NCBI GenBank assembly: GCA_937858715.1
Contig: CALLZY010000042.1
Coordinates: forward strand, 55,271 to 119,270
DNA from: an uncultured Chitinophagaceae bacterium
GTDB lineage: Bacteria; Bacteroidota; Bacteroidia; Chitinophagales; Chitinophagaceae
Length of the DNA stretch: 64,000 nt
Direction of reading: 5' to 3'
Below are positions 1-12,136 of the stretch, piece by piece. The first letter of the stretch is position 1; the number at the start of each line of letters is the position of its first letter. The notes below the pieces were generated by a model. It made no database searches. It saw only the letters and a program-made list of their open reading frames with translations, and was not told the origin of the DNA. The translations under genes and the position numbers were made by a program.

Positions 1-1
1 A

Positions 2-730
2 CATCCTGTAGATAAGACAGACAACTACATAAAAAGATGCGTGGCTGTAGCCGGTGATTCGTTGAAGATCGTTAATGGAATCCTGTATATTAATAATGAA
101 AAGGCTTTTGTGTCACCTACATCAGCCACTTATTACTATTTCAATGCGACAAAATCATTAAGTGAATTTGACCTCAGGGATGCAGGCATATCGTTAAACC
201 AGAATGAGGATAATGCGATGGCTAACGATTTTCAGCCTGTAAGTGGTAATACATACAGGGTGAATCTTACACTTGGCGAAGTAGAAAAACTAAGAAAAAT
301 TAGTGGAGTGGAAGCTAATTCAGTTTTGCCTGAGATAGATTCTTCACGGTCGGGTCAGACTTTTCCTTATGACACAAACTACTTCCACAACACCCGTGAT
401 AACTTTGAAAGTATCTGGGTTCCTAAAAAAGGCGGAGTTATTCAGTTATCACCAAAGAATATTGCACTGTATAAAAGGTGTATTGCTTTCTACGAGGGCA
501 ATAAGTTCGAGGTTAGCAATGGTAAAGCGTATATAAACGGTAATGAAGCTACCAGCTACACCTTTAAGATGGATTATTATTGGATGATGGGTGATAACAG
601 GCATAAGTCACAGGACAGCCGCTACTGGGGTTTTGTACCTGAAGACAGAATTGTTGGCAAAGCCTGGCTCATCTGGTTCAGCTATGAGAATGGCCCCCGC
701 TGGAAACGGTTGTTCCGTATTGTAAAATAA
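2..730 (+). CDS. lepB: Signal peptidase I, 5'-truncated by the window edge
   Basis: Frame is open from base 2 (HPVDKTDNYIKRCVAVAGD, catalytic Lys box); C-terminal GDNRHKSQDSRYWGFVP box E. Confidence 0.95.
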   Translation, partial: HPVDKTDNYIKRCVAVAGDSLKIVNGILYINNEKAFVSPTSATYYYFNATKSLSEFDLRDAGISLNQNEDNAMANDFQPVSGNTYRVNLTLGEVEKLRKISGVEANSVLPEIDSSRSGQTFPYDTNYFHNTRDNFESIWVPKKGGVIQLSPKNIALYKRCIAFYEGNKFEVSNGKAYINGNEATSYTFKMDYYWMMGDNRHKSQDSRYWGFVPEDRIVGKAWLIWFSYENGPRWKRLFRIVK

Positions 731-746
731 AAAGTTGTACTTTTAT

Positions 747-773
747 ATGCCCCTGTTGACCACAGGGGCATTT
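747..773 (+). terminator. Probable intrinsic terminator after lepB
   Basis: ATGCCCCTGT-tgacc-ACAGGGGCAT stem followed by TTTGTGTCTTT. Confidence 0.6.
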
Positions 774-794
774 GTGTCTTTAACAGGATAGATT

Positions 795-1280
795 ATGAAG
801 GAAAAAAAGTTTGAATTCGCCTACAAGGTTTTTGATAATATCAGTGAGTTGAACGATGAAGATGCTTCATTGCTGGACAAGGCAAGAGAAGTTACCAAGC
901 AGGCCTATGCTCCGTATTCTAAATTTAATGTTGGTGCGGCTGCTTTATTACAAAATGGCGAACTAATTACAGGAACTAACCAGGAGAATGCCTCATACCC
1001 TGTTGGTATTTGCGCCGAAAGGGTTTTACTCGGTACTGTTGGCAATCTTTATCCCGGTGTTCCGGTTAAAACACTTGCTATCAGCTATGACAGCATTAAT
1101 GTAAAAAGCGACCATCCCATTTCACCATGTGGCATGTGCCGCCAGGCCATACACGAATATGAATTAAGGACTGAATCACCTATTCGCTTAATCCTGAGCG
1201 GTCAGGAAGGGAATGTGTTTATTATAGAAGATGCCAGCCAGTTGCTGCCTTTCGCATTCACCAGCGATGAGTTGAAATAG
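795..1280 (+). CDS. cdd: Cytidine deaminase
   Basis: AYAPYSKFNVGAA, ICAER and PCGMCRQ zinc motifs. Confidence 0.95.
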   Translation: MKEKKFEFAYKVFDNISELNDEDASLLDKAREVTKQAYAPYSKFNVGAAALLQNGELITGTNQENASYPVGICAERVLLGTVGNLYPGVPVKTLAISYDSINVKSDHPISPCGMCRQAIHEYELRTESPIRLILSGQEGNVFIIEDASQLLPFAFTSDELK

Positions 1281-1299
1281 AAAAATGAAATATCTTCTC

Positions 1300-1905
1300 T
1301 TAAAGGCGCTTGATAGTACAGCCCACTGATTTCGATTCTTTCACTGTTATATCTTTTCCGCCCAGCATTTCATCAATTGCCACTAACAGGTGTTTACGGG
1401 TAACAGCATTGGCATCTGATGGGTTATCGTCAATAGCTCCGTGGTAAACCAATTTACCATTGGCATCAAAAAGGAAACACTCCGGTGTGCGGTTGGCACC
1501 AAAAGCATCGGCCAGTTTATGGTTCTTGTCAACTAAGTACTTCCAGTGGTAACCCTGCGCATCGGCGTATTTTTTCATTTCGTCAAAAGAATCATCATCG
1601 CCTCTTTTTGCTTCGTTTGAGTTAAGCAGTGCCACACCCACACCCATACCGTTGGCATATTTGCACACTTCATAAGTGCGGGACTGGTTCTTAATTACAT
1701 AAGGACAGGTATTGCAGCTGAACATCACCAGCAATCCTTTTTCTGTTTTTACATCGCTGAGCGAAACTTCCTGGCCGGAAATGTCCTGCATCTTCACATC
1801 AGAAGAGGGGAGGGAGGCTCCCAGCGGTATCGGGTCTATAGCGGGTTTCAATGCCATAAAAATGATGGCGGCAACAGGCAGCAGGGCCAAAAGTATTTTC
1901 TTCAT
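1300..1905 (-). CDS. Exported thioredoxin-fold redoxin (AhpC/TSA-like)
   Basis: Signal peptide, CNTCPYV motif, TPECFLFD, YHGAIDD, C-terminal GCTIK. Confidence 0.85.
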   Translation of the reverse strand: MKKILLALLPVAAIIFMALKPAIDPIPLGASLPSSDVKMQDISGQEVSLSDVKTEKGLLVMFSCNTCPYVIKNQSRTYEVCKYANGMGVGVALLNSNEAKRGDDDSFDEMKKYADAQGYHWKYLVDKNHKLADAFGANRTPECFLFDANGKLVYHGAIDDNPSDANAVTRKHLLVAIDEMLGGKDITVKESKSVGCTIKRL

Positions 1906-1947
1906 GGTTTTTATTTTTGTATTTCCAAATATCGTTAATCAGGCTGA

Positions 1948-2901
1948 TTATGCGTTACCATTTGCAGAATTTTCTGCCCTTTCATCGGCAATTTTTTTCA
2001 GCGATGTGATGCTTACGTTCAGCTCAAAACCTATCAGCAGCACCAGCGAGTTGATGAAGATTAAAATCATCAGTATCAACACCGTTCCGATGGAGCCATA
2101 GAGCTGGTTGTAGTTGCCAAACCTTGTTACCCACCAGGAAAAGAGCAATGTCATCAGCAGCATCAGTACGGTGGCCAGTATGGAGCCGGGGTTTATCAGC
2201 GGCCACTTCTTATGCACAGCCGGGGCATGCCGGTAGATATACGAGATACTGGCGAAAAACAGCAGCACAATCACCAGCCACCTTGCATTGCGGATGATGG
2301 CCAGCACAGTTTCATTCTCCACGCCTAAGTATTCAAGCACGGCACCACGGGCAATTAACAAAAGAATGGAAGCGAACACCAGCACATACAATATCATGGT
2401 GATTTTAATCGCCACCCACCGCATATGCAGGCCCTTCCTTTTTTTAAAGCCAATATAGTTTTTGTCGAACGAACGCATGATGCCCATCATGGCGTTTGAA
2501 GAAAAGTACATAGACAGTGCCACACCCACTGATAATAATTCGTTTCTCGGCTTGTTGATGAAATCCTGGAGGAAGCCGATCAGGTTGGCGTTGTCCTTCT
2601 CGCCTGGTATCACATCCTTTATCAGTCCGAACAGTTCGGCCTGGAATTGTTGGGTAATCGGCAGGTAGGGGATTAAGGTAAACAGGAAGATGATAGCTGG
2701 TGGTATTGCCATTACAAAGTTGAACGAAATGGCCGAAGCCCTCTCCGTCATCCCGATGGTTTTTACCTGCTGCACAAAAAAGTTCACCACATCAAACAGC
2801 GGAATACCCCTGAAGCCCGGCAGCGATGTTTCCTTGCTCTTTTGTATCACCTGCTTTACAGGAGTAATACCAGCCAGTTTATTTCCAATCTTATTTATCA
2901 A
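1948..2901 (-). CDS. YihY/virulence factor BrkB family membrane protein
   Basis: Multiple TM segments, YNQLYGSIGTVLILM motif; exact start uncertain. Confidence 0.9.
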   Translation of the reverse strand: MINKIGNKLAGITPVKQVIQKSKETSLPGFRGIPLFDVVNFFVQQVKTIGMTERASAISFNFVMAIPPAIIFLFTLIPYLPITQQFQAELFGLIKDVIPGEKDNANLIGFLQDFINKPRNELLSVGVALSMYFSSNAMMGIMRSFDKNYIGFKKRKGLHMRWVAIKITMILYVLVFASILLLIARGAVLEYLGVENETVLAIIRNARWLVIVLLFFASISYIYRHAPAVHKKWPLINPGSILATVLMLLMTLLFSWWVTRFGNYNQLYGSIGTVLILMILIFINSLVLLIGFELNVSITSLKKIADERAENSANGNA

Positions 2902-3946
2902 GTGCAGCGTTTTTTTCTTTCTCTTTCCGTGCAGCGGTGCGGCGGTTCAGTTCCTGCTGGTACAGCTTTGCATACTTCATGTGGTCGTTGTAGTTGGTGG
3001 TAAATATGCTGCTGCCGTCAAACTGGCTGCTGGCTACAAAATAAAGGTATCCGGTTTTCGGCGCATTCAGCACCATGTCAATCGTTTCCCTGGCCGGTGT
3101 GCAAATGGGGCCGGGGGGCAGGCCCTCATGCTGGTAAGTATTAAAAGGCGATTTCGTTTCTAAGTGGGCATTCAGTATGCGGGTAAGGCCAAAATCTTTC
3201 AGTGCAAACTTAATGGTGGGGCAGGCCTGCAGTTTCATTCCTGTGTTCAGGCGGTTCAGGTAAGTGCTGGCAATATTTATCTTGTCGGCCTTTACATTGG
3301 TTTCCTCTTCCACTATCGAGGCAAGGGTAACCACCTGCAGCGGTGTCATGTTCAGGTTTTTGGCTTTGGCCTTTCTTTCTTCTGTCCAGAATTTGGTATA
3401 GGCGTTGTAAAACTGCTGCACTAATTTTTCAGGGCTGCTGTTCCATTTGTTTATGTATGTGTCGGGCAGCAGCAGGGCCATCACGGTATTGCTGTCCACG
3501 CCAAATTTTTGCAGCGAGTCGTTGTTGTTCAGGTAGTGCATCATTTGCAGCGAGTCGAAAATAAAATCGTAGCGCCTGCCGGTGCCCACTTTTCCGGCAA
3601 AGGCCTCTTTGGTTCTTTCTTTGTTCACCACCACTTTTACCTGCTCCTGGTTGCCGTTGCGCAGCATACGCACCAGGGCAAAAGCACTCATGCCATCTTT
3701 CAGTTTGTAGCGGCCCGGGCGGGGATTGCTGAAGCGCAGCAACTTGCAGGCAAGGCCATAGCCGCTGCCACTTATATAGTTGCTGTCTTTAAGCTGCCGG
3801 GTAAGGGTGGCCATGTCTGTGCCGGGGTAGATGTACAAAAAGCTGTTTTGCTTATTGTGCACTGCGGGGCGCATCACCTTAAAGGCAACAAAGCCGGCCG
3901 CAACCGCCAGCAACAGCACAGCACCAATAATTATCTTTTTTAGCAT
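2891..3946 (-). CDS. mltG: Endolytic transglycosylase MltG
   Basis: N-terminal anchor, LASIVEEET, YLNRLNTGMKLQACPT, SPFNTY..GLPPGPI, YLYFV. Confidence 0.95.
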   Translation of the reverse strand: MLKKIIIGAVLLLAVAAGFVAFKVMRPAVHNKQNSFLYIYPGTDMATLTRQLKDSNYISGSGYGLACKLLRFSNPRPGRYKLKDGMSAFALVRMLRNGNQEQVKVVVNKERTKEAFAGKVGTGRRYDFIFDSLQMMHYLNNNDSLQKFGVDSNTVMALLLPDTYINKWNSSPEKLVQQFYNAYTKFWTEERKAKAKNLNMTPLQVVTLASIVEEETNVKADKINIASTYLNRLNTGMKLQACPTIKFALKDFGLTRILNAHLETKSPFNTYQHEGLPPGPICTPARETIDMVLNAPKTGYLYFVASSQFDGSSIFTTNYNDHMKYAKLYQQELNRRTAARKEKEKNAALDK

Positions 3947-3948
3947 GG

Positions 3949-3957
3949 GGCAAAGGT
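3949..3957 (-). promoter_or_regulatory. Bacteroidota -7 promoter box immediately upstream of mltG
   Basis: Minus strand reads TACCTTTG (TAnnTTTG) 3 nt before the ATG. Confidence 0.55.
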
Positions 3958-3996
3958 AATGTTAGTTGTTGCTGCAATTTACTTGCTTATAGTTAA

Positions 3997-4686
3997 TTAT
4001 GAAGGGGTGGGGAGTATGGTTTCGGTTTTTGATTTTGCAGATGCGGGGTCGATGATGATGCGGTTGTTTTTGTAGTTGAGATAAAATTCGGGATGGGTTG
4101 ATTTGAAGAGGAGAACCAGTTTGTCCATGCGGTAGCGCAGCAGGTTGCCTGCCTGGCGGAAGAGTGTGACGAGTGCGGTTCCCTGTGCGGACCTGTTGCT
4201 TACAGCGTTGCGGGGTTCGGGTGCTGCGGATTCGTAGGCCAGGATTGCGGTCATGAACTCGTCGAGGCGGGACTGAGAGATACCATATGCTGAAAGTGCG
4301 GGCAGGTTTTCAGTGGCGGCTGCATGAATATTGCGGCAGATGGCGGGGAGCAGCAAATCCTTCTTCCGCATTAAAGTGGTGTAAGAGAAATTTACCTTAT
4401 ACCTGAGTTCCATATTGCCGGATGCAACGGCACTGGCGAAGACGGCAGCCGCAACGGTGGTGGCGGCGGTGCTTACTGTTTTTTTCTTTTGGGTTTTATC
4501 TTCGGTGACACCGAGGATAACGAGGATTTCGGCACGGGCTGCGGCCCTGATGGCATCAACCAATGAGGTGAACTCGGCAGTTGCCTGTTGAAAAGCGGGG
4601 ACGGTGGCGATGACAGCAGTGTTTGCGGCGCAGTAAGTGCTTACTGCATTGAACATACCAAGCCTTGCTTCCTGTTTTGCATTCAT
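3997..4686 (-). CDS. Conserved Bacteroidota hypothetical protein, Ala-rich and helical
   Basis: 229-aa ORF resembling a recurrent Bacteroidota family (MN.KQE...MF.AV...; MDKLV..FK..HPEFY..YK..R.IIDP); visibly more GC-rich than its neighbours. Confidence 0.75.
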   Translation of the reverse strand: MNAKQEARLGMFNAVSTYCAANTAVIATVPAFQQATAEFTSLVDAIRAAARAEILVILGVTEDKTQKKKTVSTAATTVAAAVFASAVASGNMELRYKVNFSYTTLMRKKDLLLPAICRNIHAAATENLPALSAYGISQSRLDEFMTAILAYESAAPEPRNAVSNRSAQGTALVTLFRQAGNLLRYRMDKLVLLFKSTHPEFYLNYKNNRIIIDPASAKSKTETILPTPS

Positions 4687-4723
4687 AGTTTAAGGTTTAG
4701 AGGAGAATGTTATGATTACAGAA

Positions 4724-4772
4724 CAAATTTACCAGATGACAGAGTCTTTTGCAATACCACTTAAGTGGTATT
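4724..4772 (-). promoter_or_regulatory. Promoter (-7 TAAATTTG, -33 TTGC) with a perfect 20-bp palindromic operator
   Basis: AATACCACTTAAGTGGTATT at 4753-4772; -7 box at 4724-4731; same layout at 31983-32031. Confidence 0.7.
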
Positions 4773-4830
4773 CTTATTAGCAAGTTGTTAATGTTTTAAA
4801 GACAGAGAGACATGCTTTAGAGGCATGGGC

Positions 4831-5049
4831 GTATGCTTGACAGACAAAGTTCTTTGCTTAGCAGACAGAATCGTATGCTTAGCAGGCAAAGTCGTATGCT
4901 TGATTGACAAAGTCGTATGCTTGACAGGCAAAGTCGTATGCTTGACAGACAAAGTCGTATGCTTGACAGACAAAGTCGTATGCTTGACAGATAAAGTGGT
5001 ATGCTTAACAGACAAAATGGTATGCTTAACAGACAAAGTTGTATGCTTG
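4831..5049. repeat. 21-bp tandem repeat, 10 full copies plus 1 partial (consensus GTATGCTTGACAGACAAAGTC)
   Basis: Units start at 4831, 4852, 4873, 4894, 4915, 4936, 4957, 4978, 4999, 5020, 5041; degenerate units extend back to ~4789. Confidence 0.97.
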
Positions 5050-5108
5050 GTTGTAAATGGCTTATGACAGGCTGAAAGTGAGTGTTTTGGGTGGAATGGG
5101 GTTGTTTT

Positions 5109-5224
5109 TTAACCGCAAAGGGAATACAAGGAACACTGAGGACACGGAGAAGGCACGGAGTTGCACGGAGGGTTTCTGTATTTTCTCTGTGGTTCTCTGG
5201 GTTTGCTCTGCGTGGCTCTGTGTA
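5109..5224. repeat. Long imperfect palindrome built from ~9-bp CACGGAG/CTCTGTG units
   Basis: Left arm aaccgcaaag..acactgag gacacggag..gcacggag ttgcacggag; right arm ctctgtgg ttctctgg..ctctgcgtg gctctgtg. Confidence 0.7.
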
Positions 5225-5329
5225 AGTATTTTTTGTGTTGGAAGTTGAGAGATTGGCGATTGCTATCGGCTCACAAGAAGCAATTTATTGCCGCAGGCAT
5301 GGCATTGTCCATGCCTTTATTATTTTTTT

Positions 5330-5545
5330 TTATTTACTTTTTGGCATTGCCCTCCCGATTTTCATCGGGACAGGCGCCAAGTAACAAAAAGGTCTAGGCA
5401 AACCCGAACGGCTCCGCCCGTTTTGCCGGCCAGCGCACAGTAGAGGCTTTAACTATGAGATTGTTTATTGTTGGCAAGGGGATTGCTTGAGACCCTGCTG
5501 CTTGTTATGCTGGACAACGAAAGGCGCTGTGCCCCGCCTTGAAAG
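5330..5545. repeat. Structured dispersed-type repeat with an inserted TCCCGAT-N4-ATCGGGA palindrome
   Basis: tttactttttggc..gccaagtaacaaaaa arms interrupted at 5353-5370; GC-rich stems gcgcacag..ctgtgc; boundaries approximate. Confidence 0.45.
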
Positions 5546-5696
5546 TGTTTATAGTATTGTATGGATTTAAGTACGGCGGTTCCGCCGGGAGGCGGACACG
5601 GCATAGCGCTTTGAATGGCTGAACCGTTGTTGCGGTTTTGGAAAGCTGTAAATTTGGTGACGGGTTGGTGAAGGAGTGTTAGAGGATGAATTACCA

Positions 5697-5747
5697 GCGT
5701 CCCTACAAGGCACATGGCCAGTGAAGGAGACGCCGGGCGGGAAAAAA
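5697..5747 (+). repeat. Cassette-leader element, copy 1
   Basis: GCGTCCCT-acaaggcacatggccagtga-AGGAGACGCCGGGCGGGAAAAAA, followed 3 nt later by an ATG at 5751. Confidence 0.75.
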
Positions 5748-5750
5748 CTA

Positions 5751-5939
5751 ATGAAAAAAGTAGAGGCTATTGTGTGGTCTGATTTGAAGGTTGGCGACAA
5801 ATGGGTGCCCTCTATAGATCGTATTGATGCGACATTGGATGATCGGAAAAAATATTTTGAAAATAATCGATCTCCAGGGTTAGAACCACCAAAGAAAGAG
5901 AAAGAGAGTCCAAAGAAGAACTCAAAATCTTTAAATTAA
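5751..5939 (+). other. Short ORF or gene remnant (62 aa), possibly the C-terminal tail of a captured gene
   Basis: Starts right after element copy 1; Lys/Pro-rich tail; stop 11 nt before the next gene. Confidence 0.35.
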
Positions 5940-5950
5940 ATGCAGTTAAA

Positions 5951-6619
5951 ATGAAAATTACTTTTGTATTATTAAGCCTTTTATTTTCTTCGGTTGGCCA
6001 TACTCAAAGATTTTCATTGGAGCATATTAATAAAAAAAAGTATTGCCCAGACTTTTTATATGCTGAAGTGGATTGCTTAATGAAACTAAAAACCAGAGAC
6101 AAAAAAATTGACTTAGCTACGATTGACCTTTCGGGAGAGACTACATCTGTAAGAAAAGTCAATGATAGTGTGTATAGTGTTAGACCATTGGTATTAAATT
6201 CTGAAATAACTATTACTGTTATTGACAATAATTCTTACAAAGTAATTGACTCTGTTTTGATTAGAAGCGGTGACTACCCTTTTAAGTTTGGAATTACACA
6301 GTTGAATATAAGAGATATGGCGCATTCATATAGGGACATTTTTTCTCAAATGAAAAGGCTTTATTTTTACTCTCTCAATAAGGAGTGTATGGATTATGCA
6401 AGCATATGGCAGGTTATCTCATATGAGCTTGTACTTAAAAGGGGAAGTTCATCAATACTAAGAATTAGGATGCATGGCAACGAGGTAATACCTAATAAGT
6501 TTAAGCAAAACCTGATTATGAAATTCCAGCAGGAAGATGTATTAATGGCTCAAAATATTCATTTGAAGAACTCTATTGGTGAATGTATTAGAGTTGATAG
6601 TTATGGAGTATATAAGTAG
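5951..6619 (+). CDS. Exported hypothetical protein with GldM C-terminal-like segments
   Basis: Signal peptide; FLYAEVDCLMKL and VISYELVLKRG..GNE..NKF...KFQQEDVLMAQNIHLK resemble GldM Ig-like domains (by eye). Confidence 0.7.
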   Translation: MKITFVLLSLLFSSVGHTQRFSLEHINKKKYCPDFLYAEVDCLMKLKTRDKKIDLATIDLSGETTSVRKVNDSVYSVRPLVLNSEITITVIDNNSYKVIDSVLIRSGDYPFKFGITQLNIRDMAHSYRDIFSQMKRLYFYSLNKECMDYASIWQVISYELVLKRGSSSILRIRMHGNEVIPNKFKQNLIMKFQQEDVLMAQNIHLKNSIGECIRVDSYGVYK

Positions 6620-6658
6620 AGGTATTAGCCCTTGCTGGTGTTCTGCAAAAAGCAGTAC

Positions 6659-6820
6659 GCCGCTGTCATGTCTACGGCAGATAAATTGTGTTTTTCGCAG
6701 CCGAGTGTTCGTTGAACTTTCATAGGCGATGTGTCGAATGGCTATGTGAGTTTCTCCATGCCGAGTGTCGGTTCAACGCAACTTCATAGGCGTAGTCTCG
6801 GCGTATAGCTATTTGTGATT
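6659..6820. repeat. Two or three tandem ~60-bp imperfect repeats with GCCG(AG)...(CT)CGGC hairpins
   Basis: gccgagtgt..ttcataggcg..gctat.tgtga.tt at 6700 and 6760; shorter related unit at 6659. Confidence 0.7.
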
Positions 6821-6826
6821 TGGCTG

Positions 6827-6862
6827 CCGGACTCAGGATGTAACAATACCGGTTTTTTTTAT
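6827..6862 (+). terminator. Possible terminator closing the + strand cassette
   Basis: ccgg..ccgg stem followed by a run of T. Confidence 0.4.
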
Positions 6863-6963
6863 ATCTTATTTTTTTAATTTGCGATAACCTTTGAGTAATA
6901 TTTATTATTGTTGCTAATAAACTTAAGAATAAAAGTAGGACAGGCTAAGCACACAGGAACAGT

Positions 6964-7746
6964 TTAAAAGGAGTTTTTACAAATACCTTCAGATAATAAA
7001 TACTCTCCGAAGCTTAAAAAATTCAGTTTTAGCAAATCGTCCACTTTAACATTAGTATTTTTATATTCATCGAACAATAGTTTAAGTGAATTGCAGTTCA
7101 ACTGTAAGCTGAAAACTAAGTCTTTATCAAGTGTAATCATCACTGACCTTTTTAAATCAATAATATTCCCTTTTGTGCCCTCCCCCTCACACGACATGAC
7201 AACATATTGTGGAATAAAATGACTATCGCAAACAGAGACTACGAATTGTGTTCTACTAATAATTTTATTGAACTTAAAAAGCGTATCATTTTCAATGTAA
7301 CTGATAAACAGGTTGTCTTTTGCATTTACTGTTGAAATCGCAATACCCATTAGCATTGATCCGGGATAGGGGATGCCATCAAATTTTACATCTTCTTTTG
7401 AATCGCCATTTGAACTGTACACAGCGCCAATTAACATATTTTCTTTCTTGGAGTAAAAAGATTGAAAATTTCTTGCATCAAGTTTTGAATAATACAGCTT
7501 TGTCTTAACCAGTGTCCCATTTTTATCTGAATATCTTTTTACTGCAAATTTCTCGCCTAATTGGTTATTCCATTTTTTGACACTTGTTTTTTTAATAACG
7601 CCGTTCACATCATTCGGAAATCCTAAATCAAAAACGGGCTGATTTTGTACAAACACTGAGTCTAGTAAATTAAGTGTAAATAATTTTTGACAGAAACAAT
7701 TAGCAGAAAATGTGGCTGCGACTATTAGTAGTGTTACTCTTTTCAT
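6964..7746 (-). CDS. Exported hypothetical protein (cassette cargo)
   Basis: 260-aa AT-rich ORF with a signal-peptide-like N-terminus. Confidence 0.75.
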   Translation of the reverse strand: MKRVTLLIVAATFSANCFCQKLFTLNLLDSVFVQNQPVFDLGFPNDVNGVIKKTSVKKWNNQLGEKFAVKRYSDKNGTLVKTKLYYSKLDARNFQSFYSKKENMLIGAVYSSNGDSKEDVKFDGIPYPGSMLMGIAISTVNAKDNLFISYIENDTLFKFNKIISRTQFVVSVCDSHFIPQYVVMSCEGEGTKGNIIDLKRSVMITLDKDLVFSLQLNCNSLKLLFDEYKNTNVKVDDLLKLNFLSFGEYLLSEGICKNSF

Positions 7747-7767
7747 TGTTTAAAGTTTGATTCCGAG

Positions 7768-7823
7768 TTTTTTTTCGCCCCTGCATCTTCCATGCTGCAG
7801 ACTTGTGCCAGTCAGGAACGCCG
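7768..7823 (-). repeat. Cassette-leader element, copy 2
   Basis: Minus strand CGGCGTTCCTGACTGGCACAAGTCTGCAGCATGGAAGATGCAGGGGCGAAAAAAAA, ~22 nt before the ATG at 7746. Confidence 0.85.
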
Positions 7824-7869
7824 AGTCCGCTACACACAAGGCTGGTCAATGAGACTCGGCTGGGAAGAG
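7821..7869. repeat. Extension module A, copy 1 (49 bp, identical to 8441-8489)
   Basis: CCGAGTCCGCTACACACAAGGCTGGTCAATGAGACTCGGCTGGGAAGAG; CCGAGTC/GACTCGG stem. Confidence 0.95.
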
Positions 7870-8382
7870 GGAGACACCGGGCGGAAAAATTTCATATAAT
7901 CCGCTGCCATCAAATTCAAACTCACTATTCGTTCCTGGTGCTAAAATTACTCCACATTGATGCTCTCCAAAATTTTTCTGAAACTGTTCCCAATAACCTT
8001 TATTCAATAACTCTGTTTCTCCTTCAACTAGCTTGTCATAATTAAATAGATTTATGAAGTCTATGAAAATAGATTTTTCGATAATTACTACAAGTCCAGA
8101 ATCTGTTGAAAAGTTTCGGGCATTAATATTCTCATCATTGCTCTTTTTAATATCACTCACTTTTATACTTGCCAATAAGTTTCCAGAATTAATGGATATT
8201 ATGGCAAACGGAGCTTCTGTATAAGGAAATATCTTGCTTTTGATCTCCTCTTCTATATCGTTAGCAATTGAAGTATTTGACAATTCTTCTTTTATTCTGC
8301 CAAGATATAATGCGTCAATAACGTAGTAAGACTTGCCCACCTCTATTGAAATATCTTCTCCATGTAATGAAATATTAGCCAT
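7846..8382 (-). CDS. Acidic cytoplasmic hypothetical protein (cassette cargo)
   Basis: Likely start MANISLHGED at 8382; the longer ORF start lies inside repeats; the C-terminus reads into repeat DNA. Confidence 0.7.
   Translation of the reverse strand: MANISLHGEDISIEVGKSYYVIDALYLGRIKEELSNTSIANDIEEEIKSKIFPYTEAPFAIISINSGNLLASIKVSDIKKSNDENINARNFSTDSGLVVIIEKSIFIDFINLFNYDKLVEGETELLNKGYWEQFQKNFGEHQCGVILAPGTNSEFEFDGSGLYEIFPPGVSLFPAESH
7868..7889 (+). repeat. Half copy of the cassette-leader element in inverted orientation
   Basis: GGAGACACCGGGCGGAAAAA matches the 3' half of the other copies. Confidence 0.75.
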
Positions 8383-8390
8383 CTTAAAGG

Positions 8391-8443
8391 TTTTTTCGCC
8401 CGGCGTCTCCTGTGCTTCGGACTTGTGCCAGGCAGGGACACCG
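8391..8443 (-). repeat. Cassette-leader element, copy 3
   Basis: Minus strand CGGTGTCCCTGCCTGGCACAAGTCCGAAGCACAGGAGACGCCGGGCGAAAAAA, 8 nt before the ATG. Confidence 0.9.
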
Positions 8444-8489
8444 AGTCCGCTACACACAAGGCTGGTCAATGAGACTCGGCTGGGAAGAG
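8441..8489. repeat. Extension module A, copy 2
   Basis: Identical to 7821-7869. Confidence 0.95.
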
Positions 8490-8497
8490 AAAAAAAA

Positions 8498-9214
8498 CTA
8501 CCAAAAACTTAATAAATAATATACAAATGAGCCCCTCCCAAAACTATATTCCAATGTGTTAGTATATTCCGTGATTTCCTTTTTATTCGACATTTCTTTG
8601 GTCACAGTTTTTATTCGGTTATCAGAAAGAAATATTTCTTCACTTTGCCATGGGTGAAATGTGGAGTTCTGATAATAAGTGGTATCCCAAATACTCAAAT
8701 CTCTAAGATTCGAAATTTTCATCCTAATAATATTATAGCTTTCACAATGGATGCTTTTTGGGTGATTTGTATACTTATAACACCCAACAATATCGGCATA
8801 TTCTGAATCTTTACCTGAATGGACCTTGGCCATGTGAAAGACAGTACTGTCATTCTGCAGGATAATATAGTCGATCGTTTTTCTGCCACCCTGATATTCC
8901 CTGTCGATTGAGTTTTTTTGGGCAACCCATTTTCCATTTTTCCACTTTTTGAAAGCGATGTCGTTGCTTTTATTCTTATTAATCCAGGATTTTATTGTAA
9001 TAACTGTATCAGTTTTAATAATAGTTAACAGAGGGAAAGAAATCTTTTCCTCTGGTGAAAATTTTATTCCCCGAAGTTTGAATATGTCAAAATCTTTGTA
9101 GATTACTGATGTATCTCCGTTAGAGATATTCTGAATATTAACGCTGTTTTCGTAATCCTTACAGCTAAAGAGAAATATTCCACCTGTAATTATTAAACTA
9201 AGCCAGGATTTCAT
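8498..9214 (-). CDS. Hypothetical lipoprotein (cassette cargo)
   Basis: Lipobox IFLFSC followed by KDYE; AT-rich. Confidence 0.75.
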   Translation of the reverse strand: MKSWLSLIITGGIFLFSCKDYENSVNIQNISNGDTSVIYKDFDIFKLRGIKFSPEEKISFPLLTIIKTDTVITIKSWINKNKSNDIAFKKWKNGKWVAQKNSIDREYQGGRKTIDYIILQNDSTVFHMAKVHSGKDSEYADIVGCYKYTNHPKSIHCESYNIIRMKISNLRDLSIWDTTYYQNSTFHPWQSEEIFLSDNRIKTVTKEMSNKKEITEYTNTLEYSFGRGSFVYYLLSFW

Positions 9215-9231
9215 AATTTTTTATAGAAAAA

Positions 9232-9286
9232 TTTTTTACCCCGGCGTTTCCCGTCTTTCGGACTAGTGCCAGGCAGGGGCACCGGG
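9232..9286 (-). repeat. Cassette-leader element, copy 4
   Basis: Minus strand CCCGGTGCCCCTGCCTGGCACTAGTCCGAAAGACGGGAAACGCCGGGGTAAAAAA, ~17 nt before the ATG at 9214. Confidence 0.85.
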
Positions 9287-9359
9287 TTTTATGACTTCTT
9301 ACCTGAAATGAAGTTCCTAAACTTTCTCAATCGAAGCAAGTTTGGTTTCTTGTAAGACC
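9281..9359. repeat. Extension module B, copy 1 (79 bp, near-identical to 10259-10337)
   Basis: ACCGGGTTTTATGACTTCTTACCTGAAATGAAGTTCCTAAACTTTCT...GGTTTCTTGTAAGACC. Confidence 0.95.
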
Positions 9360-9489
9360 GGGATGATAAGGCACTAAACAAAATTCTGAAAGGCAAAACA
9401 GCTTGCATTTCTGCACCCAGTAAACGACATGTTTCAACAACTATATCCAACTATTTCGAGGCAATGCCTCTATTATACATCACTAAAAT

Positions 9490-10179
9490 CTATCTGTCTA
9501 TTTTGTTTTTCAACCTTTTAACTGATTTCTCAATTTGGCTTTTTATTTGACCTTTATATCCCATTATTTTTTTTTGCAAGAAAACAAGAGTATTAGTGTT
9601 GCCAATAATTGTAAGTGCATCTGCAACCTGTAATGGATGTTTGTCAAAAATCGGCAACAACAATTCCATCGTTTTCTCCTTTTCAAAATACTTTAGTGCA
9701 GCATAAACGAGCATTTCATTTTCTTTGGGCTGTTCGTCAGCGGTTAACTTTTCTTTTAGCCATTCTGAAATATTCATAGCCCGGCCAACTGCAACTGTAT
9801 TCGCTATCGCCCACTTTAAATTCGCAGAACTTTCTTGTGATTCAAATAATCTCATTAAAACAGTTCCATCAAATGGGAATTCGGCTTTTCCTAAAGCCCT
9901 TACAAGAGTTTCTTGAGAATTATGTTTATTATCAAGTTGAATAAGCCAATTTAGAATTATATCGGTAAGCCGACTATCAACTTTATCTAATTTTAATATA
10001 TCATCAGAATCGCTAATTTTTTTATATCCCTCCTTATGTAAACTTTCAATGAAAGGCTTTTCGATATTCCTTATCTCCAAAGTCTTTTTTATGCCCTCAC
10101 TTTCTTTTATTTTCAGCATTTGCTTGTATTCGCTATTTTCTTTAAACTTGCTTAAAAACTCATCTGCTTTCATAATCAT
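9490..10179 (-). CDS. HEAT/ARM-repeat-like hypothetical protein (cassette cargo)
   Basis: Helical repeats QETLVRALGK, LKWAIANTVA, QVADALTIIGN. Confidence 0.7.
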   Translation of the reverse strand: MIMKADEFLSKFKENSEYKQMLKIKESEGIKKTLEIRNIEKPFIESLHKEGYKKISDSDDILKLDKVDSRLTDIILNWLIQLDNKHNSQETLVRALGKAEFPFDGTVLMRLFESQESSANLKWAIANTVAVGRAMNISEWLKEKLTADEQPKENEMLVYAALKYFEKEKTMELLLPIFDKHPLQVADALTIIGNTNTLVFLQKKIMGYKGQIKSQIEKSVKRLKNKIDR

Positions 10180-10208
10180 TATTTAGTCAGGTATTATTTT
10201 TTAGACAA

Positions 10209-10264
10209 TTTTTTCGTCCTGCCGTCTCCCGTGCTGCTGACTTATGCCAGGCAGGGACACCGGG
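10209..10264 (-). repeat. Cassette-leader element, copy 5
   Basis: Minus strand CCCGGTGTCCCTGCCTGGCATAAGTCAGCAGCACGGGAGACGGCAGGACGAAAAAA, ~30 nt before the ATG at 10179. Confidence 0.85.
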
Positions 10265-10337
10265 TTTTATGACTTCTTACCTGAAATGAAGTTCCTAAAC
10301 TTTCTTAAATGAAGCAAGTTGGGTTTCTTGTAAGACC
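10259..10337. repeat. Extension module B, copy 2
   Basis: Near-identical to 9281-9359. Confidence 0.95.
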
Positions 10338-10351
10338 TGACAGTCAGACCA

Positions 10352-10380
10352 AACAAAAACCCCGGCGCAGGGCCGGGGTT
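10352..10380 (-). terminator. secG terminator
   Basis: Minus strand AACCCCGGC-cctgc-GCCGGGGTT-TTTGTTT. Confidence 0.85.
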
Positions 10381-10404
10381 GGAGTATGCTGTATTGCTAT
10401 ACGA

Positions 10405-10767
10405 TTATTTAGGAGGCTGCTGTTGTGCAGGGGCTGGTGTGGCCGGTGCTGTATTAGCAGGGGTGGTGTTCAGTGTTCCCGGTGCAGGTGCTGTTTGTGT
10501 GCTGGTTGGGGCACCTTTAATATCAATTGTTTTTTCAGTTGTCCGGTTGATGAACATTACCGAGATCATGCAGAGCAGTGCTACCACGCCGCCAAAGATC
10601 CAGGTGCCTTTTTCAAGTACATCGGTGGTTTGCTTCACACCCATAAACTGATTGCTGAAACCGGCAATGTTTCCGGAGAGGCCACCGCCTTTGGGGTTCT
10701 GTACCAATACAATAAGACCAAGGACCACACAGGCAACGATAATAAGTATTACAAAAAGAAGGTTCAT
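10405..10767 (-). CDS. secG: Preprotein translocase subunit SecG
   Basis: VLVQNPKGGGLSG..QFMGV..TTDVLEKGTW. Confidence 0.95.
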   Translation of the reverse strand: MNLLFVILIIVACVVLGLIVLVQNPKGGGLSGNIAGFSNQFMGVKQTTDVLEKGTWIFGGVVALLCMISVMFINRTTEKTIDIKGAPTSTQTAPAPGTLNTTPANTAPATPAPAQQQPPK

Positions 10768-11591
10768 ATCAGTTTCTTTAATTCGTCAATTTTGGCTGCA
10801 AAATAAGTGCTTTTGGCGGGTTCAAGCAAACTTAATTTGGTATAAATGGCAATGGCCCGCTGGGGGCTGCCCTGTTTTTCCCATACTTCGGCCATAGCCT
10901 CGGTAACCACTTCCTTGTCGTCCAGCGAATGTTCGGCCAGTTCTTCCACCTTTTTCTCCGAAACAGGGGCTACCTGTTGCGTTATTTCTGCCAGCGGCTG
11001 CTTTTTCAGGGTTTTGAGCCAGTCGGTAAAGCTGCGCAACTGCTGGCCAAATTTATCCTGCGGTTTATCGTCTTCCCTGAGTTTAATGCCCTGCGAGGCA
11101 AAATAATCAACTGTATGGTAGGGTTCAAAAAGCAGTTCGTTGCCGGTGGCAGGCTGTATAGTCATGTCGGCAAGGCTGATGGCTGTTGCAGCCAGCGGAG
11201 TTTCTTCTACGGGGGCATCAGTATCGTCTGCTGAGCCGGTAATAAGTTCGGGTTCAGCAGCGGGCTGTTCAGCAGGTATTGCTTCAACCAGTGCAGCAAT
11301 TTCTTCAACCGGTGATGTTGTTTCTTTTGCCGGAGCAGTTTCGGTGGCGCTGCCTTTGCCGGTAAGCAGGTAATCGGCCCACAACGGATTGCTGAAATGC
11401 AGCAGGGTGCGGTGCAACTGCTTTTGATACAGCTCTTCGTTTCCTCCCTGTAGTTTTTTAGCCAGCAACAGTTGGGCAGGGGCAAAGTATGGATAGCTTG
11501 CAGCCAGTTGCTGCAGTTCTTCGATACTGCATTGCTCAACAGATTCTTTTTGCAAAAGGGATTGTGCCAGCTGGCTGACTTCGGAATTCAT
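10764..11591 (-). CDS. Conserved Bacteroidota hypothetical protein (TPR-like C-terminus)
   Basis: YPYFAPAQLLL N-terminus; VVTEAMAEVWEKQG...AIAIYTKLSLLEPAKSTYFA C-terminus; usual neighbour of secG. Confidence 0.85.
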   Translation of the reverse strand: MNSEVSQLAQSLLQKESVEQCSIEELQQLAASYPYFAPAQLLLAKKLQGGNEELYQKQLHRTLLHFSNPLWADYLLTGKGSATETAPAKETTSPVEEIAALVEAIPAEQPAAEPELITGSADDTDAPVEETPLAATAISLADMTIQPATGNELLFEPYHTVDYFASQGIKLREDDKPQDKFGQQLRSFTDWLKTLKKQPLAEITQQVAPVSEKKVEELAEHSLDDKEVVTEAMAEVWEKQGSPQRAIAIYTKLSLLEPAKSTYFAAKIDELKKLI

Positions 11592-11611
11592 GGCGGCAAT
11601 TTACGCTTAGC

Positions 11612-12136
11612 TTACCAGTTTGAGAAAAGTTGGTTGAAAATTTCATCAGTCATCGTCCGGATCATTTCATCCTTGAGCGAACTTTCGGCCTGCTGCAGGG
11701 TTTGGTTTCCCTTAAAGTCAAAACCTTTTGAAACATCATGTTCGCTCACCTTATCGGCCTTACGGTCATTTAAAACAATATGAATGCCTACTGTAATTCT
11801 GTTGTTGGCGGCCTGCTGCCCGGAAATAGCCGATGTGCTGAGCGAATAATCCCTTATCTCGCAACTCAGTTCCCAGTCGGCATTGTCGTTATTGGTCTGC
11901 GACATTTTTGTTTGGGAAAGAAATTTCTGGCGCAGCTTTTCTGTTAATGCCGGGGCCAGTTGCGGGTTGATGTATTGCGCCCGGTTTTCAACCAGGTTGA
12001 TTTTAATTGTCTTGATAGAATCGGGAACAGAGGCATCACTGAATTTATAAATGCCGCAACCTGTGTTGGAAGCAACAGTTATAAATACTGCGATGGCAGC
12101 AGCCAGAACGAAAGCTATGCGGGTTAAATTTTTCAT
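11612..12136 (-). CDS. LptE-family lipoprotein
   Basis: Lipobox-like NTGC-GIYKFS; usual position after the sigma-54 activator in Bacteroidota. Confidence 0.75.
   Translation of the reverse strand: MKNLTRIAFVLAAAIAVFITVASNTGCGIYKFSDASVPDSIKTIKINLVENRAQYINPQLAPALTEKLRQKFLSQTKMSQTNNDNADWELSCEIRDYSLSTSAISGQQAANNRITVGIHIVLNDRKADKVSEHDVSKGFDFKGNQTLQQAESSLKDEMIRTMTDEIFNQLFSNW

Follow-up and report, generated by a model that had tools for sequence, protein, structure and literature searches.

Repetitive extragenic palindromic (REP) sequences, REPINs and bacterial interspersed mosaic elements (BIMEs), together with the REP-associated tyrosine transposase (RAYT; TnpA_REP), make up the systems called REPtrons (Nunvar 2010, PMC2817692; Bertels & Rainey 2011, PMC3116915; Di Nocera 2013, PMC3733652). 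Many REPs are located near or overlap coding regions, GTAG REPs often supply a stop codon, and head-to-head dimers are the favoured REP arrangement (Di Nocera, PMC3733652). A Bacteroidetes-restricted group of these transposases, subclass 2.6 of TnpA_Y1 (Quentin 2018, PMC6006769), corresponds to RAYT group 5 (Bertels 2017, PMC5581495), and the 2018 paper is not known to give a consensus for its atypical flanking structures. Repetitive intergenic sequences are also a feature of the rAID-1 orphan-immunity arrays of Bacteroidales, in which short, low-GC, co-oriented genes are accompanied by a XerD-like recombinase (Ross 2019; preprint 10.1101/471110; PMC12247911). Here we describe a 178-aa gene for a predicted immunity protein in an uncultured Chitinophagaceae bacterium, the 3' end of which runs into a pair of hairpin repeats. 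The gene lies in a stretch of 64,000 nt (the window; part of contig CALLZY010000042.1) from a draft genome of 282 contigs (4.4 Mb, 98.95% complete). The analysis concerned positions 7768-8489 of the window, where, very probably, a REP doublet of RAYT-associated hairpins abuts codon 165 of the gene and has replaced the native gene tail.

Results

Repeats on both sides of the 178-aa gene

Two hairpin repeats, designated the core and module A, are found on both sides of the 178-aa gene (7846-8382, minus strand). On the 3' side of the gene, core copy 2 (7768-7825, minus strand) adjoins module A (7819-7869, plus strand), and on the 5' side core copy 3 (8391-8445, minus strand) adjoins a second copy of module A (8441-8497, plus strand). 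A preliminary description of this DNA had stated that module A is identical at the two sites, and this was confirmed: its 39-nt hairpin (CCGAGTC...GACTCGG; 7821-7859 and 8441-8479) has no mismatch, and the full module is identical at 49 of 49 positions (8441-8489 in the second copy). The 39-nt hairpin occurs exactly twice in the window, with 0 occurrences expected from shuffles. The gene is situated between direct repeats (7771-7869 and 8391-8489) of 99 nt each, 87% identical and 620 bp apart, as had been described. The reported inverted half element at 7870-7889 (plus strand), directly behind the first module A, is also real. Its pattern, with up to three mismatches allowed, gave three matches in 64 kb as compared with 0.02 expected, and the remaining two matches correspond to core copies 1 and 3, at their 3' arms. 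This half-site (GGAGACACCGGGCGGAAAAA) is an extra core-type 3' arm with an A-run. It showed 71% pairing with the left end of core copy 2, in agreement with the preliminary description. The pairing with core copy 3 was better, as the 3' arm of that copy (8391-8410) gave 90% over 20 nt. Therefore, a 20-nt inverted repeat encloses the gene body exactly.

The minus-strand open reading frame (ORF) from ATG 8382 was found, as previously reported, to be open through the junction with the repeat, ending in EIFPPGVSLFPAESH followed by the stop at 7846. The native part of the gene comprises residues 1-165 (7888-8382), and residues 166-178 (7849-7887) are REP-encoded, with TGA at 7846-7848. The last two A's of the half-site (7888-7889) are shared with codon I165. 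The same junction was found in four independent contigs from other samples (L004, L005, L006 and L007), and it is therefore not an assembly artefact.

Native and replaced gene ends

A homolog search in a collection of 5.8 billion proteins gave 26 relatives, 20 of which (161-178 aa) were aligned. Nineteen of the 20 end 0-7 residues past a conserved GSGLY(E/K)I strand, and an FPPGVS-like tail is present in none of these 19; the one exception, P0002, is a 96%-identical allele with the same junction. Across the relatives as a whole, 25 homologs have their end within this distance of the strand. This alignment had been set beforehand as a check of the native C-terminus, and it showed that native ends differ from the FPPGVS of the window protein and that homologs in repeat-free loci have no such tail. 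All of the homologs begin with M-x-N-[ILMV]-S, and ATG 8382 was accordingly taken as the true start. The public gene call (203 aa, P0001) and a mechanical ORF (207 aa, TTG start) begin inside the upstream REP (8383-8469, minus strand); gene callers over-extend the 178-aa ORF into repeats at both ends.

The nearest repeat-free relative (L001, 76% amino acid identity) has the C-terminus ...LYEITDIQLH, and its DNA homology to the window is restricted to 7888-8386, with the break at GAAATT. A closer relative, L057, was found by a pattern scan for module A in metagenome contigs. This locus is 98.7% identical to the window at the nucleotide level over 7888-9383 and shares with it both the upstream doublet and the 238-aa neighbour of the gene. 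Its gene encodes 170 aa with the native end ...LYKIGNIAD, and downstream of it there is an orphan Rhs core fragment (TIGR03696, 57.7 bits) without repeats. In both comparisons, with L057 and with L001, the homology breaks at 7887/7888, which is the repeat edge, 7888 being the last base before the repeat-encoded codons. The genome's only copy of the gene aligns to the native protein over residues 1-165 only. From the native ends in the homologs, L057 and L001, the window allele is considered to be derived, and the comparisons support the replacement of five native codons and the stop by repeat DNA supplying 13 codons and TGA. The preliminary description had left the choice between capture of the gene without its own stop codon and truncation by recombination; the homolog ends and the DNA breakpoints speak for truncation. 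A 9-nt match (TCATTGACC) between the native end of L001 and module A was attributed to chance, since it is incapable of producing the observed junction.

The ORF is intact, and all invariant family residues are present in the 178-aa protein. In an AlphaFold2 model made from the alignment (predicted local distance difference test score, pLDDT, 87), the last strand is formed by residues 161-165, and residues 172-178 have pLDDT below 50. The model suggests that the repeat-encoded tail is an unstructured appendage past the last conserved element. Because the tail begins right after the last conserved strand, the REP-tailed protein most likely still works. In the L004 allele, which is 2.5% diverged, the fusion frame is open and the minus-strand stop is TAA in place of TGA. 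Between the L004 and window genes, 7 synonymous differences stand beside 7 non-synonymous ones, so that the evidence of constraint is weak.

RAYT genes and the identity of the repeats

Module A is identical to the end of a transposase gene on another contig. An intact 208-aa ORF (C166:2898-3524) terminates in module A with the last residues ESATHKAGQ before the stop, in the antisense direction to the 178-aa gene in the window. This ORF and its 56%-identical paralog (C44:1643-2233) match NCBIfam NF047646 (REP-associated tyrosine transposase) at E=1e-20 and 5e-17, with alignments that span positions 3-146 and 7-146 of the 146-position profile, respectively. The HuH motifs are NHIH (C166) and NHVH (C44), the Y motifs are YMHDNP (C166) and YIHNNP (C44), and the close homologs of both proteins are Chitinophagaceae proteins, named RayT by JGI. 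A third RAYT copy, on C226, is broken. The C166 RAYT gene is flanked by a left-end hairpin upstream and by module A across its stop, which are mutually inverted and of the same type. A core copy stands directly after the stop of the C44 RAYT gene, at the end of the contig. In the C166 RAYT paralog, module A forms the right-end REP hairpin; the core is a second REP subfamily, the hairpin following the C44 paralog, with the same architecture. REPs of both types are members of the population associated with this genome's RAYT (TnpA_REP, HUH-Y1) transposases. The earlier view of module A as an extension module of a cassette-array element had to be revised, since this REP hairpin originates from the 3' part of a RAYT gene. 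The half-site exists as had been claimed, but its nature is different: it is an extra 3' arm travelling with the module A hairpin.

The A-type REP at 7819-7869 is thus a left-over RAYT 3' end, and positions 7823-7852 (plus strand) still translate into ESATHKAGQ and the stop. The sequence TCAATGA in the module A loop (7846-7852), read directly, provides stop codons on both strands: the plus-strand TGA at 7850-7852 is the stop of the RAYT remnant, and the minus-strand TGA at 7846-7848 is the stop of the 178-aa gene. Core copy 2 is a bulged hairpin (nhmmer, E=5e-14) that fits the family-wide REP plan described below. Its 5' arm ends in CGGCGTTCC, its 3' arm starts with GGAAGATGC, and its A-run (7768-7775) ends 21 nt ahead of the ATG of a 260-aa gene. 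In core copy 3 the A-run ends 8 nt ahead of the ATG of the 178-aa gene. The second module A copy carries the tail and an A-run without a half-site, and its end is 1 nt from the stop of the 238-aa gene.

Several further observations were made on RAYT gene ends. At C166:2898-2931, the RAYT ORF reads about 10 last residues into its own right-end hairpin, and many homologs (195-197 aa) stop before the hairpin. A third repeat, module B (window 9286-9359 and 10263-10337), matches the 3' end of the C44 RAYT gene (C44:2218-2233) over its last about 20 nt, where ...GKRS and ...GKKS stand at the shared end before the stop; the remainder of module B has no match to the C44 RAYT end. Module B is probably a diverged RAYT-end remnant like module A, as judged from this partial match. 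A 158-aa gene with 30% GC lies between two convergent A-type REPs, 31 nt downstream of the intact RAYT gene (L009; C166:2237-2931). Low-GC small genes after RAYT right ends were also seen in L031, L041 and L044, and they are absent in most genera.

Hairpin consensus, covariation and copies

A search for RAYT homologs across 81 genomes from 80 genera of the family found one in 38 genomes. The RAYT flanks share a plan, consisting of CG-N4-GTCC(C), a loop of 10-50 nt often with GCACAAG, (G)GAGAC-N4'-CG, and then GGGAA. In 97 kb of RAYT loci from other genera, counted without requiring pairing, complementarity at 5 or more of the 6 flank positions was seen for 54 of 70 GTCC..GAGAC pairs, the shuffles giving 17 of 384. 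The RAYT hairpins have at least seven different 4-mers as their N4 stems. About 20 other Chitinophagaceae genera have 1-7 hairpins on both strands around RAYT, in which the stem sequence varies and the complementarity is kept. Module A (5' arm CGCCGA/GTCC, 3' arm GAGAC/TCGGCT, tail GGGAAGAG) and the core (CCGGC/GTCCC...GGGAGAC/GCCGG/GGCGAAAAAA) both fit this plan, and they therefore represent two REP subfamilies. A strict regular expression for the hairpin applied genome-wide (8.8 Mb) gave 11 matches versus 14-16 in shuffles, which is no excess; the pattern is diagnostic in RAYT neighbourhoods only. GTAG is present as CTAC, on the opposite strand, inside the loop of the A-type and of several relatives, and CGTC is found only where N4 ends in C.

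By nhmmer, about 15 core copies were found on six contigs of the genome, and by BLAST module A was found on five further contigs, with about seven A-type copies. An exact-pattern scan for module A in the collection of genome contigs gave no match. The segment 7768-7889 is a head-to-head doublet, REPIN/BIME-like, of core copy 2 (minus strand) and the A-type REP (plus strand). The heads of the two hairpins overlap by about 5 nt in GGAACGCCGAG, and the same stretch is present inside the RAYT gene end as GGACGCCGAG. The core/A doublet occurs three times in the genome (7768-7889, 8391-8497 and C266:918-1024), with unrelated flanks. Module A with the half-site is found in L058 beside a different gene of 206 aa, which has its own stop 28 nt away, and duplicated 3' arms are also present behind RAYT hairpins in two other genera (L037 and L045).

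The core loop (e.g., 8424-8438, minus strand) has TGGCAC-N4-CCGCA, with CTGCA in copy 2. A sigma-54 -24/-12 promoter was considered for this TGGCAC..GCA and rejected, as the GG-GC spacing is one base short by eye. Because related loops in other genera share GCACAAG, the loop motif is more likely a RAYT recognition motif. Scans for sigma-70 promoters and intrinsic terminators gave background levels, and on the gene strand the REPs do not serve as terminators. In this genome, REPs are frequently seen close against ORF ends. For example, two core-type REPs (C219:12444-12491 and C219:15589-15657) are located 0-13 nt from the stops of convergent genes for a 543-aa methylase-like protein and a 221-aa protein.

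Flanks of the junction among strains

The sequences on the two sides of module A and the half-site differ among related contigs. In the window, the order is the 178-aa gene, half-site and module A, then core copy 2 and the 260-aa gene. In L007 the 178-aa gene is followed by the half-site and module A and then by a different flank, X, and in L058 the 206-aa gene is followed by the half-site and module A and again by X. In L004, module B (a B-type flank) is in the place of module A upstream. The L007 contig, 99.9% identical to the window, departs from it at about 7808, within core copy 2, and continues with sequence that this assembly lacks; the X flank (L007:987-1455) is the one that adjoins module A with the half-site in L058 (oriented 1-82). 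This is a strain-level structural polymorphism located exactly at the REP doublet. The independent assortment of these flanks among near-identical strains fits recombination between REP copies, and RAYT-catalysed cleavage and joining at the A-run end may also be involved. A variant with deletion or duplication of the 620-bp unit did not turn up among the assembled contigs compared.

As to the enzyme and the order of events behind the junction, we infer a rearrangement at a REP terminus, either by RAYT-mediated joining or by recombination between REP copies. It would need at least an insertion plus a deletion, or the joining of two loci at the REP terminus. In the resulting gene, translation would continue for 13 codons through the half-site into the module A loop and end at TGA, and recombination between REP copies would keep reshuffling the flanks among strains. 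A simple insertion was also considered and rejected, in view of the displaced native tail not being found beyond the doublet and the downstream Rhs fragment of L057 not being adjacent in the window. Past the doublet, the window has the 260-aa gene, and L057 has the Rhs fragment in the same place. Rearrangement fits better than a clean insertion because the native tail is missing on the far side of the repeat.

Gene family and island setting

The homologs of the 178-aa protein are found in association with toxin genes. In L075 the homolog is 21 nt behind an Rhs protein of at least 1580 aa ending in DUF2380, in L076 it is 15 nt behind a DUF2380 ORF, and in L001 it is 41 nt behind a DUF2380/TIGR02269 ORF. 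In a Fulvivirga locus (L074), the homolog is inside an orphan array behind a 3108-aa Rhs protein. From the position of homologs directly behind DUF2380/SitA6-type toxin domains, the family is predicted to consist of immunity proteins, and the 178-aa protein is a predicted immunity protein for DUF2380/SitA6-type Rhs toxins. A DUF2380 domain was not found in this genome, and the gene copy here is for that reason probably an orphan immunity gene; the control genomes were without DUF2380 as well. A PDB fold search with the protein model gave no match at E<=0.001, and Pfam searches on all of the island proteins gave none.

In each of 13 congeneric genomes examined, secG stands directly next to yceG, and window positions 3947-10404, between these two genes, therefore represent a 6.4-kb genome-specific insertion. 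It contains a 229-aa gene, a 21-bp variable number tandem repeat (VNTR), a segment called module C, and the low-GC gene array with the REPs. The array has four co-oriented genes of 31-35% GC versus about 47%, with REPs in every gap. Downstream of the doublet is the 260-aa gene (6964-7746, minus strand), with a signal peptide, and upstream is the 238-aa gene (8498-9214, minus strand), which is lipoprotein-like; both are low in GC and have no family match. Contig C282 has a tyrosine recombinase near its start, Rhs-type segments that recur, and a gene paralogous to the 238-aa one (82% nucleotide identity to L057). C282 may be the Rhs/immunity source locus of the island genes.

Two tandem remnants of the left-end hairpin of the A-type RAYT (GCCGAGTGTC...GTAGTCTCGGC) were found at 6687-6840 (plus strand), in the same orientation as module A. 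By BLAST, the region upstream of the C166 RAYT gene matches C42:62029-62104, which is window 6759-6834, and the internal repeats at 6687-6840 concur. These left-end hairpins and the right end at 7819-7889 (module A with the half-site) have the same orientation, with about 1 kb between them. The place of a RAYT body is taken by the 260-aa gene together with core copy 2, and the arrangement looks like a RAYT element with a replaced transposase.

Discussion

The hairpin identities, the homolog ends and the DNA breakpoints together make it highly probable that the tail of the 178-aa gene was replaced by a doublet of RAYT-associated REPs standing at codon 165. Several points weigh against this reading. 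The RAYT matches score 74 and 62 bits, short of the NCBIfam curated cut-off of 80, and the Pfam Y1_Tnp matches are sub-threshold. Only about 20 REPs are present in 4.4 Mb, compared with hundreds of classical REPs (typically >100 per genome), and the repeats may be under-assembled. GTAG is not at the stem foot, where the conserved stem positions are instead GTCC and GAGAC. L057 might in principle itself have arisen by recombination and not represent the ancestral form; even so, the distant homologs argue for the native-type end as ancestral. Finally, core REPs stand 8-26 nt upstream of start codons, a placement unexplained by purely selfish repeats.

The last point is one of three that would be compatible with a different role for the repeats, together with the exact 20-nt bracketing of the gene and the reassortment of flanks at the arms. 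The REP 3' arms (GGAGAC-N6-..A-run) would then be the borders of mobile orphan-immunity cassettes, cut and joined by a RAYT-type HUH enzyme without a tyrosine recombinase, and joining of single-stranded DNA (ssDNA) at the arms would capture immunity genes from Rhs loci, sometimes clipping their ends, and shuffle them into arrays. This would be an HUH-based counterpart of integrons and rAID, and we consider it unlikely. The main alternative, a conventional cassette array of the integron or rAID type, in which the core is a recombinase site, the gene was captured or excised without its stop and module A is a cassette spacer, would draw on the same bracketing and on the same reassortment among strains. 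It would also agree with the surroundings, where orphan genes that are short, low in GC and oriented alike each have the same bulged hairpin in front; genes of this kind, together with repetitive intergenic motifs, define rAID-1 arrays (PMC12247911; 10.1101/471110). However, none of the nine tyrosine-recombinase (PF00589) matches in the genome is on a repeat-bearing contig, and no XerD-family recombinase was found at the array head by the PF00589 genome search or by an ORF/Pfam survey of 1-12000. No IntI-type recombinase with attI was found beside the array, which is flanked by secG and by genes on the yceG side. The hairpin is without attC-like R''/R' boxes: for RYYYAAC ... GTTRRRY, neither hairpin end has GTTRRRY, the ends being GGGAA/A-run, and ..ATAAAAC is found in B-type copies only. 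The same hairpins flank RAYT genes in many genera without a gene array, and module A is the end of a RAYT gene. In addition, in L057 the repeat is present upstream, yet the 3' end of the gene is native and adjoins an Rhs fragment, so that the gene is not dependent on a two-sided cassette boundary. On these grounds we regard a recombinase-driven array as quite improbable.

An equally improbable explanation is that the hairpin and A-run act in mRNA as a cis-regulatory leader upstream of the starts, controlling translation or stability, the 3' overlap being a by-product of dense packing. Initiation regions in Bacteroidota are A-rich, nine of the approximately 14 core copies end 3-60 nt before a co-oriented ATG, and the stem covaries. 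Covariation, however, is equally expected for ssDNA hairpins recognised by an HUH enzyme. An Rfam scan of 4500-11500 gave no match at E<=1, and single-sequence folds were not clearly better than shuffles (z -0.7 to -2.7). The A-type and several core copies face gene 3' ends or are oppositely oriented, and the hairpins flank RAYT genes. We have very little reason to suspect an assembly chimera at the repeat or a decaying pseudogene. The genome is a draft in 282 contigs, and contigs often break at these repeats (C44, C266), but the junction in L004-L007, one of them diverged with its frame kept open, stands against a chimera. The equal numbers of synonymous and non-synonymous changes relative to L004 leave constraint weakly evidenced, against which stand the intact ORF, the complete set of invariant residues and the pLDDT of the model.

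If the doublet of RAYT-associated hairpins replaced the gene tail, as we prefer to think, the near-identical pair of native and fused alleles gives an unusually clean view of a REP doublet rewriting a gene end without killing the gene. REPs overlapping ORF ends and supplying stops have already been published, and the present case is a well-documented example, not a new kind of system. For annotation, the apparent array of orphan genes should be read as a REP-riddled island of immunity genes, not as a recombinase-less integron, and the family of 161-172 aa proteins can be labelled as partners of DUF2380 toxins.

Among the known systems, rAID-1 is similar in setting: in an acquired island, short orphan genes of the immunity type are arrayed in one orientation, with repetitive DNA between them. 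These arrays are characterised by repetitive intergenic motifs and by two or more short genes of the same orientation with a GC content below 41%; the four genes here have 31-35%. The locus differs in its Chitinophagaceae host and in its intergenic repeats, which are RAYT-associated REPs. Rickettsia palindromic elements, and miniature inverted-repeat transposable elements (MITEs) in frame or at ORF ends (PMC3733652), are similar in that a translated repeat is tolerated as a protein appendage; in contrast to the Rickettsia elements, the repeat here is not an in-frame internal insertion and instead replaces the C-terminal end and gives the stop.

The likeness to REPtrons is closer. Inverted hairpins stand on both sides of an HUH-Y1 gene of the single-copy type, and copies of them are scattered through extragenic DNA, with a preference for head-to-head pairs; the hairpin sequence co-varies with lineage, and REPs at ORF ends sometimes give the stop. 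On the other hand, the hairpins here have a large loop of 16-50 nt with a conserved GCACAAG-like motif, a bulged A in the stem (GTCC / GGAGAC), no GTAG foot at the stem base and only about 20 copies, and the doublet is a heterodimer of two subfamilies from two RAYT paralogs, with an extra 3' arm. Subclass 2.6 has the HuH motif NH[LIV]H, the Y motif YIH[QN]NP and atypical flanking structures. The C44 motifs fit this definition, C166 (YMHDNP) is a near fit and the hairpins here are atypical; by their motifs the two RAYTs are candidate members of subclass 2.6, and they may instead belong to subclass 2.4 (YIxNNP). For the atypical hairpins of Bacteroidota RAYTs, which had been described only loosely, the present analysis provides a concrete consensus of sequence and structure that includes covariation, and it makes the recognition of the hairpins by RAYT testable.

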